Shown: in pieces, positions 2,131 to 29,544 of the stretch
Layout of the letters: each line of letters begins with the position of its first letter
How positions within the stretch are numbered: the first letter of the stretch is position 1
Sequence record: SRR2962707_4525
Length of the DNA stretch: 33,061 nucleotides
Reading direction: 5' to 3' (one strand)
Position numbers and translations under genes: made by a program
The notes under the pieces: model-generated
What the model was told of the DNA's origin: nothing
The model's database searches: none
What the model saw: only the letters and a program-made list of their open reading frames with translations

Positions 2131-2278
2131 TCGGTCGGGCCGAGCAGTGGGGGAGCCATGCTTTGAAACGACAAGATGAAAAATACTCAATGCGTGACTT
2201 CCCTGCATTTACACAGTCCGACGGTCAAATCGAGTTTGTTCTTTAAGTCTCAGAGCATATTTAAACCACAGGTGACAC

Positions 2279-2518
2279 ATGACAACTCTAAATGTTTGCA
2301 ATCTGCGTGAACTCATCATTGGGGGAATGTTGGAAGCTCGCAAAAAAATAAGTGCAGACTTGGAGCAGGCTACCAAAATCGAACAGCATTTCTATACTGA
2401 TGACGACCGCAACACCATGCGGGAACAGCTCGCGGAATATGACGCATTTCGTCATGAACCTGATCGCTGGTTTCGTTCGCTGGGGCGGACAATCCCGAAT
2501 AAGAAACAAGAGAGCTAA
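2279..2518 (+). CDS. Small hypothetical protein (79 aa)
   Basis: ATG with CAGGTG upstream; charged helical composition; fills the gap between the klcB-like gene and the recombinase without overlap. Confidence 0.55.
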   Translation: MTTLNVCNLRELIIGGMLEARKKISADLEQATKIEQHFYTDDDRNTMREQLAEYDAFRHEPDRWFRSLGRTIPNKKQES

Positions 2519-2562
2519 GTCTGTATCAGGAATGCATTGGATCGAACGCTCTAAGCCACGTG

Positions 2563-2592
2563 ATAGAACCGGCAGAATTCTGCCGTTTCTAT
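2563..2592. terminator. 30-bp near-perfect palindrome between convergent genes (bidirectional terminator or recombinase site)
   Basis: ATAGAACCGGCAGAA|TTCTGCCGTTTCTAT, one mismatch; overlaps the recombinase TAG; followed by TTCTTTT on the + strand. Confidence 0.5.
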
Positions 2593-4199
2593 TTCTTTTG
2601 TCCAAGCACACGCACCATAGCGGGAAAGTCATATTCGATCACGCATGTACGATAGCAATGATCACTCAGAGCATCCCATTTGGCATGTATGTAATAGAGC
2701 TTCATTGTATGTCGCAACTGGGTGACGGCTTCAGGGTCTCGCGTCCACACCAGCAACTTATCAATTAACCGAAGAAACCGTTCATGGATTTCCTTGATGT
2801 TCGTAGGACGCGAGATTTCCTTGAGTTTTCGCTTTTCCCTGTCAATTTCGAGGCGGATCAACCGAACCTCTTCTGCGTTATCCTCAAGCCAAGCATTTCC
2901 ATTCAACAAATCAAGGCTATTTAGTATGTGTTCTGCCCGATCACGTAGCCCCTTAAGTCTGACTTCAGCGGTCTGGATGCGTTTGTTGACGCGCTCACGC
3001 TTTTCGACCATTTCGTCACTGTCATAGAACTGCGCAATGTCAGAAGTTTTGAGGCGTTGTGCTTCGCGTAGGACGACATCGATCAACTGATCATAGGGAA
3101 CAGACCTATGCGGGCAATTGGGGTTACTACAGGAATAGTGATGTGCCCAGTGTGCTCCGATCTTTGTGCCGTGTTCTGCGCATCTGAGGCGGCCAGCAAA
3201 GACTGCTGTAACGCGCTCTCTTGTTTTAATCTGCCGCTCACGCCAACTACGATTGAGATTCTTGTGAAGCTGCTTGGTCTCTTCAGGTGACCGCAACTTG
3301 ACCATTTCCCGATACTCGTTCGCTTTGCTTGAGCGCTCATCAAGCATTGACTGTACTTCATCAAAAACCTGATCATCGACAATTTGAAGTTCCGGGATCG
3401 GAACACGCACCCATTCATCCTCAGGGCGAACCACAGGCACTTTACGCCCCGTCGATGGGTTCTTTCGGTAGTGAAGTTTGTTGAATGTAACAATACCCTT
3501 GTAAAGCGTGTTACGGAGCAGGCCCGTTTTGCGGGATCGCGTGCCGACAAGGGTTGTTGAGTTCCATTTACCGCCGTTTGGCGATGCTATACTTTCCGCA
3601 TCCAACTCTTCACAGATGTATTTAAGCTTGTTGCCCGATTGATAGAGTTCAAAAATTTTCCGAACGGTTGCCGCCTCAGATTCAATGATCTGGCGCTTGC
3701 CCCGTATCGGTTCCCCACGTTCATCAAATGTACGGACGAGTTCATATCCATATGTGTTGCCACCGGGAACGCCACCACGCAGGACGGCCGAGACAACACC
3801 GCGATGGGTTTTGTCTGACAAATCCTTGAGATACAGAGCATTCATTGTACCCTTCAGGCCAATGTGAAGTTCGTTGATAATGCCCTCAGAAATGGTTTCG
3901 ACTTCAATGCCAACGAAACCCATTTTTTTGAAGAAGTTTGCTACGTCCCCCTGGTCTCGACTGATACGCGACAGATCTTCGCAAACAATCCGGTCAAATC
4001 GGTTGTCGAACGCGCCCATAAGCAAACTTGATATGCCCGGTCTGCTATCCATGTGAGCACCAGACATAGCTTCGTCGTAATACACGTCAATCACATGGTA
4101 TTTCTGAGCAGAGCAATGCCCTTCACATCTCACTATTTGATCTTGCGTACTGGTTGTTTGGCGGTCTGTAGAATGACGTGCGTAGATCGCAACTCTCAC
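2589..4199 (-). CDS. Large serine recombinase (resolvase N-terminus, recombinase domain, degenerate Zn ribbon, coiled coil)
   Basis: MRVAIYARHST with catalytic Ser10; SGAHMDSRPG; DLSRISR; YGY; LRNTLYKG; IVDDQVFDEVQ; LRCAEHG...YSCSNPNC; coiled-coil tail. Confidence 0.93.
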   Translation of the reverse strand: MRVAIYARHSTDRQTTSTQDQIVRCEGHCSAQKYHVIDVYYDEAMSGAHMDSRPGISSLLMGAFDNRFDRIVCEDLSRISRDQGDVANFFKKMGFVGIEVETISEGIINELHIGLKGTMNALYLKDLSDKTHRGVVSAVLRGGVPGGNTYGYELVRTFDERGEPIRGKRQIIESEAATVRKIFELYQSGNKLKYICEELDAESIASPNGGKWNSTTLVGTRSRKTGLLRNTLYKGIVTFNKLHYRKNPSTGRKVPVVRPEDEWVRVPIPELQIVDDQVFDEVQSMLDERSSKANEYREMVKLRSPEETKQLHKNLNRSWRERQIKTRERVTAVFAGRLRCAEHGTKIGAHWAHHYSCSNPNCPHRSVPYDQLIDVVLREAQRLKTSDIAQFYDSDEMVEKRERVNKRIQTAEVRLKGLRDRAEHILNSLDLLNGNAWLEDNAEEVRLIRLEIDREKRKLKEISRPTNIKEIHERFLRLIDKLLVWTRDPEAVTQLRHTMKLYYIHAKWDALSDHCYRTCVIEYDFPAMVRVLGQKK

Positions 4200-17184: not shown

Positions 17185-18188
17185 GTCGCTCTCCCGTCTT
17201 TCAGGATGAAGTTATCGTTAGCCGGTTGCCAGATATCCGTGATGCGACGGAACCCGTCCTGATCACGTTTGATCTGGACAACGAGATCGACCATTTCCGT
17301 AAGAAACTCGGGAATGCGATCCATTTTCATTCCTGCCCACGCGAGGTTCTGATCAAACTTGCGGTGTATTGCGTGTTTCGGATTAGTCGAATGGATTGTG
17401 AAGCTCACGCCGGTGGCGCCGGCATTGAGCGTTCCGAGAACAGCAAAGGCATTTTTCGTACTGATTTCCCCGAAAGGAACACGATCCGGGGTAATGCGGT
17501 TGACGTGATCGAAAAGAACACGCCAATCGACCATGCCAGTGTTACTGCCACTTTCACGCGCAGCAAGTAGCCCATTGCCGTCCCAAAATCGCTCAAGGAA
17601 CAGCTCGCCCGAATCTTCAAGAGCGACGACGCGAACGTCGTCAGAGACAGAGGAAAGCAGCATGTTGAGCAGGCTTGTCTTTCCGGTGTTGGTCCCACCA
17701 GAAATGGCGATGTTCCAACCTTTGACCATCGCCTCAATCAGCAGTTCTTTGATTTCGTTTTCACACTTGATTTTGAGGCGATCCATCGCGTCATCAAGGT
17801 AATCACGATCCCCTTTCTTTGTTGCCGGCGTAAAGTCACGCCACGTCGGCGAGAAAGGATGTTTACAGCGTATCGCGAGACTCAGGCCTGATCGGACAGA
17901 AGGCCCGACCAGGCATTCAAACCGATGCCCCTCATCAAGTGTTGTAGAAAGGATTGGATTACTGTCAGGGTCGAAATTCAGCCCTCGGTTATTCGAAAGA
18001 GCTATGCACAGGCCTTCAATAACAGCCTGTGTTAGCCTTGGGTCTTCGATTAATTTTTTCCCGGTACCGCGACGGTCCACTACGATCCGATGCGGACCAT
18101 TCAACCGAACCTCGACGGTGGTCGGGTCGTCGTAGTAACGAGCGAGTGGGGCTACGATTTTTTTGTATAGCGGGTTGATGGCGTTCAT
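17181..18188 (-). CDS. virB11: VirB11-family secretion ATPase (divergent motifs)
   Basis: ATG 18188 overlaps the upstream TAA (TAATG). EVRLNGP, SLAIR, ISGGTNTGKTS (Walker A), ALEDSGEL, PDRVPFGE, TIHS. Confidence 0.9.
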   Translation of the reverse strand: MNAINPLYKKIVAPLARYYDDPTTVEVRLNGPHRIVVDRRGTGKKLIEDPRLTQAVIEGLCIALSNNRGLNFDPDSNPILSTTLDEGHRFECLVGPSVRSGLSLAIRCKHPFSPTWRDFTPATKKGDRDYLDDAMDRLKIKCENEIKELLIEAMVKGWNIAISGGTNTGKTSLLNMLLSSVSDDVRVVALEDSGELFLERFWDGNGLLAARESGSNTGMVDWRVLFDHVNRITPDRVPFGEISTKNAFAVLGTLNAGATGVSFTIHSTNPKHAIHRKFDQNLAWAGMKMDRIPEFLTEMVDLVVQIKRDQDGFRRITDIWQPANDNFILKDGRAT

Positions 18189-20419
18189 TAATACCACCCC
18201 CACTGATTGATGCAGCCCGCTTTTACCGCGTAGGAATGCGCCGGAAACCCACCGTTGTTGGAGCGATACGTGATGTACCATTGGTAGGTGCCCGAGTGGC
18301 CGGATTGGTTGTATGAAGGATACGCAGCCACGGTTTCACAGTTGCCCTTCACTGCATCGCCTATTTGCGTGCCGTCTTCACGCTCTAGGATCTTTGTCCC
18401 TACGCTTGCGGTGTAGTTACAGTGGTCCCCGTAAGACGGGTATATTGTTTTGGCCTCCCCGTCGCTGCCCTGCTGTTCAACAAAGACCCTATACCCAGTC
18501 CGTCCGCAGACCGACCCTGTATATCCTTGCGGTGCGCTCCACCGTTTGTATGTTTCCGCTGCCCAATCTACTTTGATGTTGCATTTGTTCCCAAGATCCA
18601 ATGGGGTTGCCTCACCAACAGTTACCTTGTGGGTTGTTTCGTCGGGCCGTTTGTAAATTTCGACTTCATCGCGTTCGTCAAATCGGGTGCAACCTTCATA
18701 ATAGGTTTCACCATTTGTCGCTGGGCCGACACCTGTATAAAGGTAAGGGACCTGTGGATCCCCGGGCAGAACTTGCGACGTCAGAACGTTGTATCGCCCT
18801 GAAAGTGTTTCGACGCCCTCGATGTAGACAGTGACAAGACGATACGCGAACAGCTTGTCATCGTGACGTTGCCAGCCCGTCAATTCTTGCTGATGGGTAT
18901 AGATGACTCCGTTATCCTGACATTCCGTGACAGGCTCTTGCTTTCCGTCGAGCAGATAATAGAAGCGTTCACTGCCGATACTCTGTCCAGCCGATATGTT
19001 ATGGCTCCACTTCCCCGGATCTTGGCAACCTGATGTCGTTGACTGGATGTCTTTAGCCGAAGGATCTGGCGTGCATGGGGTACGATAAATCTCGAAACCA
19101 TGGACATTGATCATCACACGGCTTTGAAGCGTTACCTTCCCACTTTCGCGGTTGATGATCGGTTCACACACTTGATCGCCATTGGCGGTTTTATAGATTG
19201 TGGAGTGATCGTATTCTTCGTCGTTATCCTGACAGGACGTATCCCAATCCTGACCTTCCAGCGTGTAGATGTATTTGGATCGACCGAACGATTTTCCGGC
19301 AAGGAAGTCGTCGCGAATATCGCACCCTTCCGTGGTTCTCTCCATCGGTACAGGCTCAACTTCAATCGATGCTGCGCAGGACGAAACCGGAATTTCCTTG
19401 CCGTTATGATTGGTGTAAACCAGCTTGCCTTGCGGTACAGCTTCCAGATTGATGTAATCGAGATAGACCGTACAGGCATTACGGTCTTCTACAATGTCAT
19501 AAACCTTTTCGGTGTCCGGCTGACAATCGCCAATTTCTTCCCGATTACCGCCGCCGTCCGTGTAGTAATACATGAACTGGGCGGTAGCTTTCATCGTCTC
19601 GACATTTTCGTCGTAGGGACAGACGGCATAGCTCGGACTGATCTTGAACCGCTCCGAGCCATCAGCGCAATCGCTGTACTCGGGCGTTCCGTCCGTCACC
19701 GTTTCAACCCGCGTTTGCTGGATCGCCTGCAACTGATCGAGATCCACACGGATCTTACATCCGTTCGTGGTGATGTTGGAGCTGATGACGGGGGTTTTCT
19801 TCACATCCAGCCCATCCGGGGTCGAATATCCCGATGCATCCGGGTTGGATGATGCGTTTGAGCCGACCTTGCCTTCCGAGGCGCCAACACCTGAGTCGGC
19901 AATCTCTTCTTCGCTTTTTTCATCCTCAGGGATGTCTTCTGCGGCCGCGAGCCGTTCCAGGGCGGCCACAAGTTCTGGCTGATCTCCCTCAATCGTAATT
20001 GGCGACGACGGATCCAATGCCGTTTGGTCAAGATTGAACTGTGCAACGAAGTTGTCAGAATTCAGCGGTTCGGTGCGATTGCCCTTACCAACACTTGAAA
20101 GAACAAGCTGACCGATTTTCATATCATCGACAGAAACATAACGGGCGTATGCCTTCGCAGTCACACCCTCAGTCAATGTCTTGGAAACGCCCGGAATATC
20201 GACAAACCCGAGATCGAGCGCTACTGGGTCGTTCTCTGGCAATTCGGTCGGGGTCTTCGTTCGGGTGATAATATTCACCTTTTCGACAAGGCCATCCATG
20301 CCGGCAGTCGGGGCTTGGGATTGTGAGCTGATACTGTCGATCTCTTGTGCGACCTGCGCTGTGGCGGGCAGGGCGAGACATGACGACAGTATCAGCAATG
20401 CAAACCATTTGCGTTTCAT
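18188..20419 (-). CDS. Secreted Cys-repeat protein, putative adhesin or mating-pair stabilisation factor (743 aa)
   Basis: ATG 20419 with GGAG RBS; signal peptide MKRKWFALLILSSCLALPATA-Q; six ~50-aa C-x(29-34)-C repeats; tightly coupled to virB10 and virB11. Confidence 0.8.
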   Translation of the reverse strand: MKRKWFALLILSSCLALPATAQVAQEIDSISSQSQAPTAGMDGLVEKVNIITRTKTPTELPENDPVALDLGFVDIPGVSKTLTEGVTAKAYARYVSVDDMKIGQLVLSSVGKGNRTEPLNSDNFVAQFNLDQTALDPSSPITIEGDQPELVAALERLAAAEDIPEDEKSEEEIADSGVGASEGKVGSNASSNPDASGYSTPDGLDVKKTPVISSNITTNGCKIRVDLDQLQAIQQTRVETVTDGTPEYSDCADGSERFKISPSYAVCPYDENVETMKATAQFMYYYTDGGGNREEIGDCQPDTEKVYDIVEDRNACTVYLDYINLEAVPQGKLVYTNHNGKEIPVSSCAASIEVEPVPMERTTEGCDIRDDFLAGKSFGRSKYIYTLEGQDWDTSCQDNDEEYDHSTIYKTANGDQVCEPIINRESGKVTLQSRVMINVHGFEIYRTPCTPDPSAKDIQSTTSGCQDPGKWSHNISAGQSIGSERFYYLLDGKQEPVTECQDNGVIYTHQQELTGWQRHDDKLFAYRLVTVYIEGVETLSGRYNVLTSQVLPGDPQVPYLYTGVGPATNGETYYEGCTRFDERDEVEIYKRPDETTHKVTVGEATPLDLGNKCNIKVDWAAETYKRWSAPQGYTGSVCGRTGYRVFVEQQGSDGEAKTIYPSYGDHCNYTASVGTKILEREDGTQIGDAVKGNCETVAAYPSYNQSGHSGTYQWYITYRSNNGGFPAHSYAVKAGCINQWGWY

Positions 20420-20423
20420 GCTG

Positions 20424-21548
20424 TTACTCCACTTCTTTGATATACCAGTCCGTTGCCGGACGAATTTGCAGGCGTGTGCCTTGGCGAATTGTGATGATCG
20501 GCTTGAGATCAAGTGTCCGCTCAAGCATGTCGGCCGTAATTTCCCCAAACTTGTTCGAGAGTTCCTCAGACGCCTTTTCGGCAGCGGCCGTGGCCACTTC
20601 TCCATCGGCGTCCTCTGATTTTGTGCTGGCGGCCGCATAGCGCACCGCAGTGGAAATGCCGGTTAACAGGAAGGCGTTGCCGTAGCGCTGCCAGAACCTG
20701 TTATCGACTTCGCCCGAAACACCCACCCAGCCTTGCTGGTTGGTTACGTTTGAGCCGAGATTGATGATTTCTGCCCTATGGCCCGCTATCAGAACGCGCT
20801 CGCACTCGATGGCCAGTTGTGAACTGCCCATGTCAGCAGGAGGCAGATAGCTGCAAATCATGCGTGACCCTTTGGGCATCAAAACCATGCGGCCGTGATA
20901 GCCGAACACATCGCGTGTTGTCTGAAGGATCACCGATCCGGGTTCTTCGCCGCCGACTTGGCTGTTTATCCCGGTTTCAAGCTGAACCGAGATGTATCGA
21001 TCCTGTGCAATCTTGCGCGAGTTATCGACCGGCAGTGTTGAGGTGCGACGTGGTCCGTCATAGTCTTCTGGTTCTTGGCCAACATCTTTCAAATCAAGCG
21101 GGTCAGGACCAATCCTGCGGCCCATTTTCGGAACCGGCACAGTGTTGGTAAATCCATCCCCTTCATCCATCGGCACACGCGGATCGTGATAGGTCGCCAG
21201 CGAGAGACTTTGGGTGGATGGTTGCGATCTGGACCACGCGGCTTGCAACGCCAGTCTGTACGGATCAGGCGCAGGAGGTTCTGGAACAGGCTCAACAACC
21301 AGCTCTGGTTCAGGTTCCGGTGTTGGTTCTGGCGCCGGTGCAGGTGCCTCGCGTTTAATGATGACAGGTGGAAAACGCGGGGCGGCGGGTTCTGGCGCCG
21401 GCGGGGCCGGTGGCGACGGGGCTGGTAAAGCCCATGCGCTCGCATCATCGGGCGGTAAGGTCGGTGGCACCTTTACCTGTTCCGCATCGACACACAGACC
21501 ATTGAGTGTGAGGTTCAACACCAGGGCGATATCGCAAATGGCGCTCAT
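20424..21548 (-). CDS. virB10: VirB10/TrbI core-complex protein
   Basis: Pro-rich linker, then ISVQLETGINS, DVFG..VLMPKGSRMI, GVSGEVDNRFWQRYG and PIITIRQGTRLQI. Confidence 0.93.
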   Translation of the reverse strand: MSAICDIALVLNLTLNGLCVDAEQVKVPPTLPPDDASAWALPAPSPPAPPAPEPAAPRFPPVIIKREAPAPAPEPTPEPEPELVVEPVPEPPAPDPYRLALQAAWSRSQPSTQSLSLATYHDPRVPMDEGDGFTNTVPVPKMGRRIGPDPLDLKDVGQEPEDYDGPRRTSTLPVDNSRKIAQDRYISVQLETGINSQVGGEEPGSVILQTTRDVFGYHGRMVLMPKGSRMICSYLPPADMGSSQLAIECERVLIAGHRAEIINLGSNVTNQQGWVGVSGEVDNRFWQRYGNAFLLTGISTAVRYAAASTKSEDADGEVATAAAEKASEELSNKFGEITADMLERTLDLKPIITIRQGTRLQIRPATDWYIKEVE

Positions 21549-23953: not shown

Positions 23954-24354
23954 TGGGCACCTGTATCACTGGAATTTTGGGAGGAACGGCTGGGCATCTG
24001 GCTTTGACCTTGCTTCAAAAGAGCCAGTTGCTTTTGGTTCTCGATAAGTTTCATGATCAACCGCGACACTCCCCAAATGAGGGCCGTCAAGATGATCGAC
24101 AGGAAAACCAACTGCCTGAGAATTTGCGCTTGATCGGTGACATCCAGAGCGAGGAATGCACGGATAATTAAGATCAGGGTTTCCGGCAGAAACAGAATTC
24201 CGAGACAAATGACAGACCAGAAAAGCAACCCTGTGCCCCGGTTAATGACGGTAATCACTACACCGGCCACGCTCAGGGAGGACGGCTTTTCGCCATGTGT
24301 TTTGATGCTCATTGCAAAAAGTCCTTTCATATCAATTGTTCGAAATTCCGCCAC
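23950..24354 (-). CDS. Hypothetical membrane protein (2-3 TM); start uncertain
   Basis: Fills the gap after virB6; hydrophobic helices; stop overlaps the next ATG. Confidence 0.65.
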   Translation of the reverse strand: MAEFRTIDMKGLFAMSIKTHGEKPSSLSVAGVVITVINRGTGLLFWSVICLGILFLPETLILIIRAFLALDVTDQAQILRQLVFLSIILTALIWGVSRLIMKLIENQKQLALLKQGQSQMPSRSSQNSSDTGAQ

Positions 24355-25513
24355 GTTTCAGGCGGTCCACATATTCACCGAAGTTGCTTGCGGACGAACC
24401 GCCGCCCATCTTGCCCAAATCATTGAGCGCACTGCCTTTGGCAGAACCGAGAATGTCGGGATTGTTGAAAAGGGTTTCTCTTGCCGCCCCCAGTCCTGAC
24501 TGGGCAGCGCCCGTTGCTTTGTCTGCAAAGTTGAGAGCTTGCTTCAAACCGGGAGGGCCAAACTTCTTGGCCATATACATGCTGGCACCAACGGCGGAAC
24601 CAGCCATGGTTGCAGCGGCGGTGTTTGTGAACTGAGATTCTGCTATGGAATTGGCGATGCCTGTGGCTTCGGTTACGAAAACCGTGCCCATGATGCCAAG
24701 GATGACGGCGAGGAAGCCCGGGCCAGTGAAGAACGATCCGCCGTCAATTCCCACCATCCTCGTATCTAGTTCCAAGGAGGTAACTGCAAACAAGCAGATC
24801 CCGATCGCTAACGTTGCCCCGTACAACACCAGTCCGGCCGCAATCAGTGATTTTAAACCTTTCCAAACCATGCCTTGGCTCCATTGGAAGCCAACACCAA
24901 GCATGATGAAGGGTGATAGACCGGCAAGGACAGCAACCCGGAATATCGTGACCATGACCTGACTGAAATAAACAACGATCAACAGGAACCAGGGGATGAT
25001 GATCAGGACGCCGGTTAAAGGGCCTGTCAGGTTGCCGACAGAGAACGATTTCCAGAGTTCAAAACCGACATCTAGCACCTTCATAAATCCGCGTTCAGAT
25101 GCAAACACAAGAAGGGTCACGCCGCTGTAATGATCTGTACCGTCGGCAGTCCAGTCAGCGCCTGAGACATTCCCGGCAGCGATCAGAACGGCACTCGCAG
25201 CAGCCGTCATTGTCCCGATTGCCATCTTGTAGATAATCATCACAAGGCCGGTCCCATCTGCGATCAAACCGCCTGCGACAATGACAAAGAATGTTTCGCG
25301 GCAAAGGCTTGCAAGATCGGCACGACCGAGTATCATCTTAATACCCTGAACCATCAGCCAAAGGCCGACGACGGCTATGAAAATCTTCAACATCCCACTG
25401 GAAAGAACGACCGTAAGTGCCTCGACAAACTCGCGGGCATTCTTCTCATATACCTGGACGACGTCACACGTCGCACAGAAGGGCGCGTCTATGGTTGGTG
25501 TATTAAGTGCCAT
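24332..25513 (-). CDS. virB6: VirB6/TrbL polytopic membrane protein
   Basis: ATG 25513 with AAGGAA RBS; multiple TM segments, LAGLSPFIMLGVGF core motif, Gly/Ala-rich tail; N-terminal CATC. Confidence 0.85.
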   Translation of the reverse strand: MALNTPTIDAPFCATCDVVQVYEKNAREFVEALTVVLSSGMLKIFIAVVGLWLMVQGIKMILGRADLASLCRETFFVIVAGGLIADGTGLVMIIYKMAIGTMTAAASAVLIAAGNVSGADWTADGTDHYSGVTLLVFASERGFMKVLDVGFELWKSFSVGNLTGPLTGVLIIIPWFLLIVVYFSQVMVTIFRVAVLAGLSPFIMLGVGFQWSQGMVWKGLKSLIAAGLVLYGATLAIGICLFAVTSLELDTRMVGIDGGSFFTGPGFLAVILGIMGTVFVTEATGIANSIAESQFTNTAAATMAGSAVGASMYMAKKFGPPGLKQALNFADKATGAAQSGLGAARETLFNNPDILGSAKGSALNDLGKMGGGSSASNFGEYVDRLKRGGISNN

Positions 25514-26177
25514 TGTGATTTCCTTGATAATTTGCACACCCGCGCAAGCACGTTATGCCCCTAAGAAAGTCGATTTCTTTGACTTGGACCGAGCTGTTGG
25601 ATTTTGGTCTGAACTGAAAACACGGGATGATTTGGAGAAGGCATACGCGCAGTGCGATAGCAGCGAAGCCTACAATCACTGGGATGCCCGCTGGCTGAAC
25701 GACGGGTCTACAAAGATTGAAGACCTCCAACTGGAGGACGAAGCGGACAGGCAGTTGGTCGAATATTGCCACGACTTGAACCGCACCTACGATTACTGGG
25801 CCCGCTGGTACGACAGCATTGAAAAGATGATGACCACGACCACGGCGCTCAATCCGAATGGACCGATTGCCGAGCCTTGGAATGAATGGAAGGTTCTGTG
25901 TGAGAGGTACGATTACTGGTATGAAAAGTACCGGGATCGTGGATACAACGACGACCACAAGAATATCTTCACGGGTGAATGCAACGACCTTCCTGACTGG
26001 CGACTGCCAGACCAGGTAAAGAAGTACGATACTCTTCTTGCCAATAGCGTTATTCGCAGTGGAAAGAATAACGAACAAAGCCGCATGGTCGTATCGAACT
26101 ATCTTGCCAAACATGGCGATACACTGAGCAAAGCTGACCGCAAGGCTCTCGAAGAGATCATCAAACAGTTTCAGTGA
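25491..26177 (+). CDS. Secreted hypothetical protein, antisense to the transfer operon (228 aa)
   Basis: ATG 25491 with AGAAGGG upstream; signal-like MVGVLSAIVISLIICTPAQA-R; natural soluble composition (D/E/K/W/Y-rich) with internal repeats. Confidence 0.75.
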   Translation: MVGVLSAIVISLIICTPAQARYAPKKVDFFDLDRAVGFWSELKTRDDLEKAYAQCDSSEAYNHWDARWLNDGSTKIEDLQLEDEADRQLVEYCHDLNRTYDYWARWYDSIEKMMTTTTALNPNGPIAEPWNEWKVLCERYDYWYEKYRDRGYNDDHKNIFTGECNDLPDWRLPDQVKKYDTLLANSVIRSGKNNEQSRMVVSNYLAKHGDTLSKADRKALEEIIKQFQ

Positions 26178-26200
26178 CGGGTGACATGCTGGATGGACGA

Positions 26201-27148
26201 TCATTCATCGTCTCCAGCGCTATCATCTTCACTACCATCAGAGACTTCAATTCCATCAAGAGCTTCATCAAGCGTGGCTTCAGGTGGCATCAGCTTCATG
26301 AGTGTAGCCGCTTGAATACGAATAAGCTGCGCACGCTGCTGCTGTGACTGCACCGCCTGCCTATCCTGATGCAGCATGACCTTGATCAAGACAGCCACAA
26401 GCTTCTTCAGGGTATCGGCCGCATCTGCTTCCGCCTCGATCTCATCGGCAGTTAACTGATTGGCTTCCACCTGATCAATGATCTGGTCGGATTGCGAGAA
26501 CCCCGTATTGATCGCGTCCTTTACAATAACGTTCTGACGTTGAAGGACTTGTTTTCTTGCTAGGTCGCGGGCTATGCGATGAGCACGCTCCGCTGCTGGG
26601 GATCCATCGGGGTTTTTCCAGTCGCCTGCATTGTCGCCGCCCCAACTGCCGCCTTCTGGATAAGACCAGTCTTCGGGAGCCGTTCCGTCTTCAAACTTCC
26701 AGCTATCGGGATCATTCGGATCGAACCAAAGCATTTCCTGATAGAAACGACGACGTGAGCAGATGCTTTCCCAGTCCAACTCGTCCAGATTGAGACCCGG
26801 CATTAATCCCGACAGATCCGGTAAAAGACAGCGGGCATCCTTGTTAATGGCTTGAGCCAAACGCGCCATATTGACGATTGGCATGGTGATGTTCCCAAGC
26901 TTGCCGATTGTATCGACCTGGTCCTGAACAGCCTTGCTCACTTTGCCCAGGATCTCAGTCTGCTTCATCAGTTGATCAAGCTGTTTTTGAAGGCTGTTGA
27001 ACTGTTCAATCAGCTTGGTAAAGGAGGTTGCATCAAATACGGGATAAGTTGCAGTAGCCGTGGTGGGCAGCAGGACCAGAGCCCCGATCACAAGCACACC
27101 AATATGCCGCTTGAATTTTCCTGATGGTTTCAAAGATGTTTTGACCAT
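26201..27148 (-). CDS. virB5: VirB5/TrbJ-like minor pilin
   Basis: Signal peptide then YPVFD and Gln-rich coiled coils; position after virB4. Confidence 0.75.
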   Translation of the reverse strand: MVKTSLKPSGKFKRHIGVLVIGALVLLPTTATATYPVFDATSFTKLIEQFNSLQKQLDQLMKQTEILGKVSKAVQDQVDTIGKLGNITMPIVNMARLAQAINKDARCLLPDLSGLMPGLNLDELDWESICSRRRFYQEMLWFDPNDPDSWKFEDGTAPEDWSYPEGGSWGGDNAGDWKNPDGSPAAERAHRIARDLARKQVLQRQNVIVKDAINTGFSQSDQIIDQVEANQLTADEIEAEADAADTLKKLVAVLIKVMLHQDRQAVQSQQQRAQLIRIQAATLMKLMPPEATLDEALDGIEVSDGSEDDSAGDDE

Positions 27149-29544
27149 GCGTCCCCCCATTTCTCTTTGAGTTCAGCAAGTTCATGGTTCGCGCCCGGGC
27201 CGCTTTTATAGAACCGCGCAGCTTTACCGAGCGGTGTCAGGTCAACATCAAGAATGACGCTTTCCTCGTATCCGCTGACTTCATCGCGTTTAATGATCAG
27301 AACACGACGATCATTTTTCTTGCGGCTGCGTGTGCGCCCTCGAATGAACTGGATCTGTTCTTCATTCAGATTGAAAGGCTTGAGACTTTCTTCTGTAACC
27401 TTGGAGTTCGGGAAGAAAATGAATGTGGCCGTGTTTTCAATGATTGCCTCATAGCCTTCCGACTTGGTAAGCGCTGCCGGATCCTGAAACACCATACCGA
27501 CCACACCGCCGAGCTTCCGATACTCGCGGTACATCACACTACTGAGATCACGAAATCCGGGGTTTTGCCGAAGCCTTGCAGCTTCCTCAAGAGTGATGAC
27601 AAAACCACTTCTGCCTTCCCGGGCTTCCTTGGCCATTTCATTCGCAGAATGAAAGATTGCCTCAGAAATATGGGCGACAATCGGAGCTCCGAGTGAGGGG
27701 TCTTTCAGCGCTTCATTCATGTTGATACCAACCATGTGTGATTGGTTCAGCAACCCGGAAAGACTGTCGTGGGGGGCATTGAAGATATGGCTTCTCAGCC
27801 CCTTGTTACCCTTGTCGTCAACAACCCATTGTGCAAATGCGTCACGCAGATTTGAACGACGCGCAAAAGAATAAGGATAAAGAGCGTTCAGGGTTCGATC
27901 TGGCGGATCAAGCTGAAACGCCAGCTCAACTGCATGATCAAGTTGCTTGATGTCGTCGCTGTCCAAAGCCACGCCTGCTAGGGACTTGAGAATGAACCGA
28001 ATACGCTCGCGGTTTTCAGGCTTGTCTTCACCGACATCGAGAGCATTCAAGGCAAGATCATTATACCCTTGATAGGAACCGCCCATAGCTTCCACCATGA
28101 AGCGTGACCCTTCCTGAGAGTCAAACAGGTATGACCGCACATTCGGGAACTTCGCCAAACCACCCAGCAGGTGCATCATGAGTGTTGATTTGCCACTACC
28201 GGCTGGAGCAAACACAAGGAAGTTTGCAAGCGACAATGGCTTGTTCACAACGTGGAACTGGAATGAGTAACTTTGACCGGAAGGTGTTGCGAACCAGCGA
28301 ATTGGCTCAGGGCCAAGCGGGCTTTCTGCCATTCCATTTGGCGAGTGAGGGAACGCCCAAATCGATGCAATGTTCTGGTCGCGAAGATCGAGACTGGCCA
28401 TCATGCGCCCACCGGGGGGGAGCAAGCCGCCCTTGATTGGTTTTGGTAGCCTGTTAAACCAACATGCGGGGGCACCGGCCGTCTGGATCGAGTAGCCTAT
28501 TCTGCGGTCACCAAGTATGGCACATATTTCACGTACCAGGTTTTCAAGAGCCTCGGCATTTTCTGCACGCGGAATGATGCAGAACTGCGTGGCAAACAGG
28601 GAAGTGTTGTTTTCCTTCAGCAGCGCCAAGGTTGCTGATGTTTCTTTTGCCGCAGCAGGATTCCCGAACCATCTTCCAGTTTCCGACTGGAGGCGACGGG
28701 AAAAGAACATAGTCGCTTGGTCACGGCCCCAAGGCTCACAGACCTGACTGATTTCAATGTCGCCTTCCAGCGCCATGATTTCACTCGCGAAGTGAGCGGT
28801 CAGGACTTCCGGCCAATACGTAACCGTGATGACCTTCTGGACACGTTGCTGAGGGACATGGGTTGTGATCGTTCCGCTAACTTTGTCGAAGGCAAGGTCT
28901 GATGCTGGAAGGCTGCCTGAGATGTTCCTGCTTGAAGCAGGCAAATCCCGACGATAGTCACCACTTACCAGTCCGTTAAGAAAGCCGGTTAACGGACACG
29001 AAACATCGTCTGTCTCCGGCGTTTGGAGTACCACAGGACGATAGGCCGACATCATGGACTGGATTTTGTCTTCAGCATCGGCAAGCGACTGCATGTCCGT
29101 GCCTGTCAGCATCAGGTACCAGTCAATGAAATAACTGGATTTGAAGCGATTTGCTTCAGCTTCCCCGATTTCAGACAGCACGTCATTTGGCCATGTCGCA
29201 TGGCTATCAATCCGATGTCTTCGCTTTACACCAAACAGCCTGTTGGAAAGGCCGGCCTTTGCCAGATCCTTCAGTAAGTCTGATCGACCCAACAGCATCG
29301 TGTGTTGTTCCGTATCGACCCTTGCATCGTAGCTGGTCCCTTCAATGTGCCAGATACGGAAAAGCGATCCGTCTTTATTGCGGCCTGTTACCGCATCGTT
29401 GTGATCAATGCAGTCAAGTTCAAGTTCGTCTTGCAGCCAGTCACGCTGCAAATCACCAAGCATGAACCTTCGGCTTGCTGGAATAACAAGACCTGCCCCC
29501 ATAAGGGATACAAAACCGGTTGCTGCCACTTCTGACCAAATCAT
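27130..29544 (-). CDS. virB4: VirB4 ATPase
   Basis: SYSFQFHV, NFLVFAPAGSGKSTLM (Walker A), FDSQEG..MGGSY, VITLEEA (Walker B), YRKLGG..FQDP, TFIFFPN. Confidence 0.95.
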   Translation of the reverse strand: MIWSEVAATGFVSLMGAGLVIPASRRFMLGDLQRDWLQDELELDCIDHNDAVTGRNKDGSLFRIWHIEGTSYDARVDTEQHTMLLGRSDLLKDLAKAGLSNRLFGVKRRHRIDSHATWPNDVLSEIGEAEANRFKSSYFIDWYLMLTGTDMQSLADAEDKIQSMMSAYRPVVLQTPETDDVSCPLTGFLNGLVSGDYRRDLPASSRNISGSLPASDLAFDKVSGTITTHVPQQRVQKVITVTYWPEVLTAHFASEIMALEGDIEISQVCEPWGRDQATMFFSRRLQSETGRWFGNPAAAKETSATLALLKENNTSLFATQFCIIPRAENAEALENLVREICAILGDRRIGYSIQTAGAPACWFNRLPKPIKGGLLPPGGRMMASLDLRDQNIASIWAFPHSPNGMAESPLGPEPIRWFATPSGQSYSFQFHVVNKPLSLANFLVFAPAGSGKSTLMMHLLGGLAKFPNVRSYLFDSQEGSRFMVEAMGGSYQGYNDLALNALDVGEDKPENRERIRFILKSLAGVALDSDDIKQLDHAVELAFQLDPPDRTLNALYPYSFARRSNLRDAFAQWVVDDKGNKGLRSHIFNAPHDSLSGLLNQSHMVGINMNEALKDPSLGAPIVAHISEAIFHSANEMAKEAREGRSGFVITLEEAARLRQNPGFRDLSSVMYREYRKLGGVVGMVFQDPAALTKSEGYEAIIENTATFIFFPNSKVTEESLKPFNLNEEQIQFIRGRTRSRKKNDRRVLIIKRDEVSGYEESVILDVDLTPLGKAARFYKSGPGANHELAELKEKWGDAWSKHL

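Follow-up and report, generated by a model that had tools for sequence, protein, structure and literature searches.

A stretch of 33,061 nucleotides from sequence record SRR2962707_4525 (the whole stretch is hereafter called the window) encodes a conjugative type IV secretion system (T4SS) on its minus strand. Between virB6 and the gene in the virB5 position, the plus strand carries a gene for a putative secreted protein, designated X, and the minus strand opposite X is itself open for 233 codons. The locus raises the question of whether this second open reading frame (ORF) is open by accident, is a gene in its own right or is kept open for another reason. Judged by the comparison of 35 loci, X is the protein-coding gene, and the minus-strand frame, designated the bridge ORF, is held open by selection on its openness and not on its product. 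It is probably translated and couples virB5 to virB6 across X. The features concerned are the following.

24332..25513, minus strand: virB6 (TrbL/VirB6), ATG at 25511-25513; Pfam PF04610, 24.6 bits
25491..26177, plus strand: gene X, 228 amino acids, ATG at 25491, stop at 26175-26177; predicted secreted, all-helical protein of an unnamed family
25503..26204, minus strand: bridge ORF, 233 codons, ATG at 26204-26202, TAA at 25505-25503; antisense to X
26201..26204, minus strand: ATGA start-stop overlap, in which the TGA stop of the virB5-like gene overlaps the bridge ATG
26201..27160, minus strand: gene in the virB5 position, 319 amino acids, named by position
26212..26215, minus strand: GGAG motif, 7 nt upstream of the bridge ATG, within the last virB5 codons

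Geometry and conservation of the bridge ORF

The frames of the bridge ORF and X are codon-aligned in antisense, with position 3 of one opposite position 1 of the other. In the window, the bridge stop TAA lies 8 nt past the first base of the virB6 ATG (25513). The coordinates of X and of the minus-strand ORF (26204-25503, 233 codons) and the ATGA overlap with the virB5 stop had been given in an earlier note, made from the sequence of the window alone, and proved correct.

The survey comprised 35 distinct loci in which both junctions were readable (18 + 3 + 7 + 7); two further loci (L012 and L027) were left out because of contig ends. The set includes 21 Thalassospira loci, the window among them, and 14 loci from other Alphaproteobacteria, with X identity down to about 24%. 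In a class-wide sample, X was present in 7 of 401 alphaproteobacterial genomes, and a search with the virB5-like protein added further loci. A pattern scan of 185,579 species genomes returned 20 loci, 12 of them identical to loci already in the set and 2 identical to each other. Loci L065 and L066 consist of the same 5483 bases in metagenome-assembled genome (MAG) records labelled Marinobacter and Celeribacter, which suggests that the two share a mobile element or that an error was made in binning.

The bridge ORF starts on the virB5 stop in all 35 loci, the overlap being ATGA in 32, GTGA in two (L024 and L061) and TAATG in one (L067). A GGAG, GGAGG or GGGG-type motif is located 5-9 nt upstream of the bridge start in 18 of 18 Thalassospira loci, and similar Shine-Dalgarno-like strings precede it in further, later-added loci. 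The motif is kept despite differing C-termini of VirB5 (DDE, GGE, GNQ, SEE, AAE, GDE and others). At the other end, counted from the first base of the virB6 ATG, the bridge stop lies between −14 and +25 nt throughout the set. With stops arising at the background rate, the frame would on average run on for tens of codons more before meeting one; hence, both ends of the bridge ORF are set on the stop and start of its neighbours. In 35 of 35 loci, the frame is thus kept open, is equipped with a start and ribosome-binding signals and has the layout of a translationally coupled cistron, with its start on the upstream stop and its stop near the downstream start. The gap between the X stop and the virB5 stop takes values of 5, 17, 20, 23 and 32 nt and is always 2 modulo 3.

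Larger inserts keep the same arrangement. Four loci (L023, L046, L047 and L065) carry a second plus-strand gene, Y, after X and in the same frame, and a single bridge ORF of 305-324 codons spans both genes. The Y proteins are about 140-160 amino acids long, with hydrophobic N-terminal segments and a charged tail (L023:1000-1479, minus strand; L046:2321-2737, plus strand). Y has no Pfam or PADLOC family match, and two copies of it, when compared, share 20 bits only (E = 0.01). In L042 (G416:C1, operon-sense 2217-3386), a unit consisting of the C-terminal tail of virB5 plus X is tandemly duplicated; both X copies lie under an open sense frame starting at ATGA. In L038, a relative without X, virB5 directly abuts virB6.

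Avoidance of antisense stop codons in X

Stops on the aligned antisense frame arise from the codons TTA, CTA and TCA of X. A minus frame closed in homologues had been named in the earlier note as an observation that would speak against its proposal; it was looked for, and in none of the 35 distinct loci is the aligned frame interrupted over mature X. The remaining two antisense frames contain 4-12 stops in 19 Thalassospira loci and 2-14 across all loci.

The 23 control genes of the window contain 196 TTA, CTA or TCA codons among 9427 (2.08 per 100). In the X gene of the window, a single such codon occurs among 228, at codon 5, and it is the bridge stop itself. The probability of an open frame for the window alone is about 0.01. 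In the doubly open part of X from the 19 Thalassospira loci, TTA and CTA account for 0 of 280 leucine codons and TCA for 0 of 160 serine codons, while the flanking virB5 and virB6 genes have 105 of 1399 and 126 of 960 (231 of 2359 together). The remaining NNA codons are normal in X, at 15.7 per 100 against 13.6 and 18.4 in the flanks. Given the protein and the codon usage of the flanks, the probability of an open frame is 0.018-0.35 for each of the Thalassospira loci. It is far lower in three loci from AT-rich hosts, L028 (1.2 × 10−7), L025 (4.7 × 10−6) and L033 (7.3 × 10−6), whose hosts have a GC-content of 0.35-0.42 and whose flanks contain 7-10 antisense stops per 100 codons.

These counts bear directly on the simplest explanation, that of an ordinary shadow ORF, open by chance or because X has a general codon bias. 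Of the antisense frames, the codon-aligned one is open most often, and long antisense ORFs face other genes of the window as well, with runs of up to 269 codons. However, a chance opening accounts neither for its recurrence in 35 of 35 loci nor for an avoidance specific to TTA, CTA and TCA that leaves other NNA codons at normal levels. The single-locus probabilities of 1e-7 to 7e-6 come from AT-rich hosts, where these three codons are common, and the start and stop of the frame are set exactly on the stop and start of the neighbours. We consider that this explanation has hardly any chance of being correct, and, as judged by the codon counts, the minus frame is held open by selection and not by chance.

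Gene X encodes a predicted secreted protein of an undescribed family

Four further features concern the start of X, the overlapping start of virB6 and the family signature.

25479..25483, plus strand: Shine-Dalgarno-like AAGGG of X, within virB6
25491..25550, plus strand: signal peptide of X, 20 amino acids, with a hydrophobic core and AQA followed by RY; read from the sequence
25520..25525, minus strand: Shine-Dalgarno-like AAGGAA of virB6, within the signal-peptide codons of X, 6 nt upstream of the ATG at 25513
25980..26003, plus strand: family signature C-N-D-L-P-D-W-R

The plus frame of X is open from further upstream (25377). The head-to-head overlap of X and virB6 (25491-25513) reported earlier holds if virB6 starts at the ATG at 25513, which is conserved and preceded by AAGGAA, and each ribosome-binding site does lie within the other gene, AAGGG of X in virB6 and AAGGAA of virB6 in X. 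The signal peptide without a lipobox was likewise found as described: a hydrophobic stretch is followed by AQA and RY, and the only early cysteine has isoleucine at position −1. A hydrophobic N-terminus followed by A-x-A is found in all aligned X relatives. Members of a T. marina-type clade (L015-L018 and L045) have a signal ending in AQA or AHA, followed by A/G-C-x-x-C; the first cysteine could belong to a poor lipobox (Q or H at −3), and some members may be lipoproteins. The three imperfect repeats that the earlier note had read in the protein are present as strings, and their significance by shuffling is weak (21 of 1000 shuffles for the first and second repeats, 175 and 107 of 1000 for the other pairs). 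The first two motifs hold only in a long X subfamily, and the repeats are not conserved in the short one.

The residues D31, W39, D95, L96, W103, C137, C164, P168, D169, W170 and R171 are invariant in 18 aligned sequences, the last five belonging to the signature (alignment A1); P, W and D of the signature are still invariant or nearly so in a 60-sequence alignment (A3). X relatives occur in 17 of 37 Thalassospira genomes and at every locus fill the virB5-virB6 gap in antisense orientation. Searched with a profile, 1.84 billion representatives yielded 122 clusters at E ≤ 1e-3, of which 75 reached E ≤ 1e-10. The clusters looked up are all 'hypothetical' or unnamed and come from Thalassospira, Pacificispira and marine metagenomes; the NCBI label of the X protein itself is 'hypothetical protein', under a Thalassospira name. 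One matching cluster, P0031, is a repetitive leucine-rich repeat protein of 3390 amino acids and was taken as spurious. At E ≤ 0.01, X belongs to no family of Pfam, NCBIfam or PADLOC; tblastn against 72,556 plasmids gave no match either, and the ESM Atlas no usable one.

AlphaFold2 models the X protein of the window, with 18 sequences, as all-helical with a predicted local distance difference test score (pLDDT) of 78.3. The conserved core, modelled on a short relative with 60 sequences, reaches a pLDDT of 91.8 and a predicted template modelling score of 0.83. For the window model, the best Foldseek hit has an E-value of 0.53, and the best VIA hit, with Z = 6.6, covers the C-terminal three helices only. 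For the core model, the respective values are E = 1.1 and Z = 4.2, with 0 of 48,161 chains at Z ≥ 5. The predicted structures thus have no fold match in PDB, which does not prove the fold to be new.

Substitutions follow the plus frame. The differences at its three codon positions number 13, 6 and 59 over 160 codons between L009 and L020, and 20, 20 and 78 over 166 codons between L015 and L017. In BLASTP between the window and T. marina, the plus-frame products score 48.1 bits (E = 7e-12) and the minus-frame products 21.6 bits (E = 0.007). Since substitutions concentrate at third positions and X has a signal peptide, invariant residues, a confidently modelled fold and numerous profile matches, X is, on this comparative evidence, a real protein-coding gene under purifying selection on the plus frame. 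It is predicted to be a Sec-exported, disulphide-containing helical protein of an undescribed family.

The same evidence bears on the opposite possibility, that the minus-strand ORF is the sole real gene, an ordinary operon member, and X an artefact of annotation. The minus-strand ORF does lie on the operon strand and has textbook coupling overlaps at both ends. Nevertheless, the substitutions pile up on third positions of X, and all X relatives have a signal peptide; invariant Cys, Pro, Asp, Trp and Arg residues, a confident X fold and the 122 profile clusters also contradict it, and this possibility can practically be set aside.

The bridge product shows no constraint of its own

First positions of the minus frame coincide with third positions of X and vary as fast as the synonymous sites of X. 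In most of 17 pairs, four-fold sites of X diverge about as much as those of virB5 and virB6, and in several they diverge more (e.g., 0.40 in X vs. 0.40 and 0.41 in the two flanks; 0.54 vs. 0.30 and 0.25); in three close pairs they diverge less than in the flanks. The 21.6 bits shared by the minus-frame products of the window and T. marina extend over 25 residues only, and the products of distant loci are barely alignable. The bridge product has no Pfam or NCBIfam match, and no purifying selection on its amino-acid sequence was found. The earlier note had proposed comparing selection on both frames in homologues; by codon positions and four-fold sites, constraint is seen on the X frame only. 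As far as these comparisons can measure, the minus frame adds no constraint apart from the ban on stops. The frame is unconstrained in sequence, yet open; selection thus acts on its openness and not on the encoded product.

Dual coding, in which the minus-strand ORF would also encode a functional, perhaps membrane, protein and form an antiparallel overlapping gene pair with X, predicts such constraint. Its conserved start and stop signals, gene-like length and, in the window copy, hydrophobic segments are compatible with a coding function. However, hydrophobicity of an antisense frame is the expected mirror of a hydrophilic sense protein. The minus-frame first positions that vary at the synonymous rate, the four-fold sites of X that are not slowed relative to the flanks and the short similarity of products without a known family all speak against a second protein. 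Antisense overlapping genes under purifying selection have been reported in P. aeruginosa and enterohaemorrhagic E. coli (EHEC). We regard dual coding here as quite improbable.

Proposed mechanism

We propose that the bridge ORF is translated, that selection demands nothing of it but an open frame, and that it couples virB5 to virB6 and shields the operon transcript from polarity; this is probably the correct reading of the locus. Ribosomes finishing virB5 would restart at the overlapping ATGA behind the GGAG motif, cross the antisense stretch of about 700 nt and stop only a few codons away from the virB6 ATG, at which the same or new ribosomes would initiate virB6. Ribosome cover would keep Rho from terminating in a long untranslated stretch of antisense type, and translation of the bridge would limit pairing of the tra transcript with X mRNA. 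Expression of virB6 and the downstream genes would thereby be sustained. Translating ribosomes shield intragenic Rut sites, loss of translation leads to polarity and Rho suppresses antisense transcription, as outlined in PMC12360218. Rho is present in all three host genomes checked.

That the shadow ORF may hold ribosomes on the mRNA of the operon had been put forward in the earlier note. This proposal gains strong comparative support from the 35 open frames and the conservation of both junctions; translation of the bridge itself, its effect on Rho and polarity and the function of X are inferences.

A translated bridge might have a mainly regulatory role, silencing X by interference or averting sense-antisense duplexes and their cleavage by RNase III. 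The transcription units are convergent, no terminator-like site was found in 24900-26700, between or around them, and the starts of X and virB6 overlap, all of which is in line with such a role. On the other hand, nothing separates the regulatory reading from the anti-polarity one, and the need for translation is the same in both. We consider a mainly regulatory role unlikely, although less so than dual coding.

Data on transcription are limited to RNA-library contigs from 4 runs of 3 studies, which match the window with 0 mismatches at 25359-25850; a further contig falls in virB4. The earlier note had proposed that X is expressed independently of tra transcription and counteracts it. Promoter-like sites show no enrichment (3 vs. 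1.7 ± 1.5 expected); one of them, which is not significant, lies upstream of X, and the contigs, of unknown strand, begin at 25359.

25309..25336, plus strand: promoter-like site TTGCAA, 16 nt, TATCAT, in virB6

Several observations weigh against selection for openness and against the coupling mechanism. The probability of an open frame is 0.44-0.73 in GC-rich hosts and hence uninformative there. The loci share descent, so their counts are non-independent trials, although synonymous sites are near saturation between clades. The RNA-library contigs are unstranded and possibly derive from DNA carry-over, and the parts that they do not cover are uninformative. The excess of C over G in the bridge RNA is small (26.6% vs. 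23.1%), which makes its rut-like character weak. virB6 has a Shine-Dalgarno-like motif of its own, and coupling is perhaps unneeded. A polypeptide of 233 amino acids, partly hydrophobic and without a use of its own, would be costly. In the closest relative, L002, whose X is 92% identical, the codon matching the ATG at 25491 reads ATA, followed by ATT (L002:1498-1512); X there has no canonical start before the signal peptide and may use a rare start or be disabled, with its frame intact. Finally, an AT-rich MAG that is 64% complete (L036) has an unrelated antisense ORF with a signal peptide in the virB5-virB6 slot. Its operon-sense strand (G296:C84, 2232-2560) contains stops in all three frames, and the virB5 stop TAA is followed by a 17-codon ORF; this slot is without an open sense frame, so a bridge is not obligatory for such an insert, and L036 forms a natural contrast to the other loci.

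Possible role of X and comparison with known systems

X diverges much faster than its neighbours in some pairs of loci. Between L016 and L018, the fraction of differing residues is 0.44 in X, 0.04 in virB5 and 0.15 in virB6; between L015 and L016, it is 0.41 in X against 0.08 and 0.10 in the neighbours. Synonymous divergence of X is also higher in both pairs. Divergence so far above that of the neighbours, synonymous sites included, suggests that the X cassette is swapped by recombination. When VirB6 was compared with X for co-variation, only the first 20 or so residues of VirB6, which overlap the 5′ end of X, and one internal window varied.

The slot between virB5/trbJ and virB6/trbL holds eex in the IncN plasmid pKM101 and trbK in the IncP plasmid RP4, as outlined in PMC8923210, which bears out the equivalence of position drawn in the earlier note. 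X lies between the homologues of these genes, though on the opposite strand. It resembles Eex and TrbK in occupying the same T4SS slot and in its predicted export to the envelope, and it evolves far more quickly than the genes beside it.

The genes of Eex and TrbK, both small lipoproteins, lie on the operon strand. By contrast, X has 150-310 amino acids, lies on the opposite strand, shares no sequence or family match with them and, in the window, has no lipobox.

Another system for comparison is Tpf (XAC2611, DUF4189), the trans-intoxication protection factor of the Xanthomonadales X-T4SS. According to the preprint's outline (bioRxiv 10.64898/2026.05.09.723464), Tpf is a soluble periplasmic protein that acts in the recipient and blocks an incoming T4SS by binding VirB5; it has a signal-peptidase-I signal and conserved cysteines and is encoded beside virB6, often unannotated and sometimes in several copies. 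X shares with Tpf, as outlined, the place beside virB6, the signal peptide and the cysteines, and L042 contains a tandem duplicate. However, Tpf has a DUF4189 fold with three disulphides and is co-transcribed with vir genes, while X is modelled as all-helical, has two invariant cysteines and no Pfam match to DUF4189, and lies antisense.

X fails to match in sequence, domain and lipobox, and was therefore assigned neither to Eex/TrbK nor to Tpf. X may work in the periplasm as an exclusion-like factor against an incoming T4SS, a possibility to which we give somewhat less than an even chance. The position in the slot and the hypervariability suggest such a role, and the secretion signal, too, is consistent with the exclusion or immunity function proposed in the earlier note.

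The bridge ORF also has partial parallels. Avoidance of stops opposite genes, with an unconstrained antisense product, has been reported statistically, and a role of translation beyond the protein has been speculated upon (bioRxiv 10.1101/724807, abstract). The bridge resembles what is described there in that opposite-strand stops are avoided and the antisense translation is unconstrained, but it exactly fills the gap between two operon genes, has coupling signals at both ends and faces a conserved nested gene. No such coupled-gap case appears in the abstract of that preprint, and it is the defined operon context of the bridge that allows a concrete mechanism to be proposed.

Translated antisense overlapping genes, as briefly described, include olg1 and olg2 of P. 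aeruginosa and pop, asa, ano and laoB of EHEC. Like the bridge, they are long antisense ORFs opposite annotated genes and have translation signals. They differ in being proposed as protein-coding, under purifying selection and with expression of their own, while the bridge has no detected amino-acid constraint and would be read within operon translation. Classical translational coupling through ATGA or TAATG uses the same overlap motifs and the same placement of the Shine-Dalgarno sequence as the virB5-bridge junction, and the bridge stop lies near the virB6 start; but it joins two functional cistrons, and the bridge would be a middle cistron apparently without a functional product.

In its widest form, the proposal would make the bridge ORF a new class of element that serves ribosome transit only, and X, with Y where present, a recombining exclusion cassette of a new fold around which the coupling of the junction has been rebuilt. 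We find this wider version evenly poised between right and wrong.

T4SS context and flanking genes

The conjugative T4SS cluster on the minus strand of the window encodes VirB4, VirB6, VirB8, VirB9, VirB10, VirB11, VirD4 and a relaxase, as well as an ArdC-primase fusion (all by Pfam). The virB5-like protein has no Pfam or NCBIfam match and 'virB5' is a positional name only; the type present in the window occurs together with X, both being found in the same 17 of 37 Thalassospira genomes. The PF04610 score of VirB6 is below the cut-off of 25.9 (E = 2.5e-5), and its position and length fit VirB6. The position of the virB6 ATG is conserved across loci, with an ATG at the place matching 25513 in 19 of 19. 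X had been called the only gene opposing the cluster, with which the ORF list is consistent; the other plus-strand ORFs of at least 100 amino acids between 8.3 and 32.3 kb lie inside larger minus-strand ORFs, and not each of them was tested. No Rfam family was found in the window. By blastn against the plasmid collection, the window matches one record, T. marina pCSC3H3.

The start of VirB6 (window 25430-25513, minus strand, and homologues) is a hypervariable tail, some 10-20 residues long, after which comes an invariant C-x-x-C (C13 and C16, alignment A2). The variable tail is the portion that overlaps the 5′ end of X. In T. marina pCSC3H3 (L001; 5070-5127 and 5093), the deposited virB6 start is an internal methionine 19 codons past the conserved ATG, and the deposited X start is MAVSAG instead of the upstream MRQL; the head-to-head overlap of all other loci is thereby lost.

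Between virB10 and virB11, the minus strand contains an ORF of 816 amino acids (18188-20638) with no Pfam, NCBIfam or PADLOC match. No other control gene faces so long an aligned-antisense open run (269 codons; plus-strand ORF 19100-19852), which was judged unremarkable at the codon rate of this ORF.

Implications

No published case of a coupled bridge ORF across a nested antisense gene, in a T4SS or elsewhere, was found in the literature outside subscription journals and closed supplements. The locus provides a natural, phylogenetically replicated case in which what selection maintains is an open frame, not the protein encoded by it. It turns the debate on conserved antisense ORFs into a simple experiment, in which a stop in one gene is created or abolished by changes that are silent in the other. 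For annotators, it is a warning that, where two genes are called in this way, both calls may carry meaning. A further outcome is an uncharacterised secreted family, with 122 clusters and without a fold match in the PDB, that occupies the exclusion position in conjugation systems of marine Alphaproteobacteria.

The arrangement suggests how operons tolerate nested opposite-strand genes despite Rho-dependent polarity. If the wider version of the proposal is true, an operon can be read through an oppositely oriented nested gene without loss of downstream expression, and the invasion of the virB5-virB6 junction by X depended on a rebuilding of the coupling around it.

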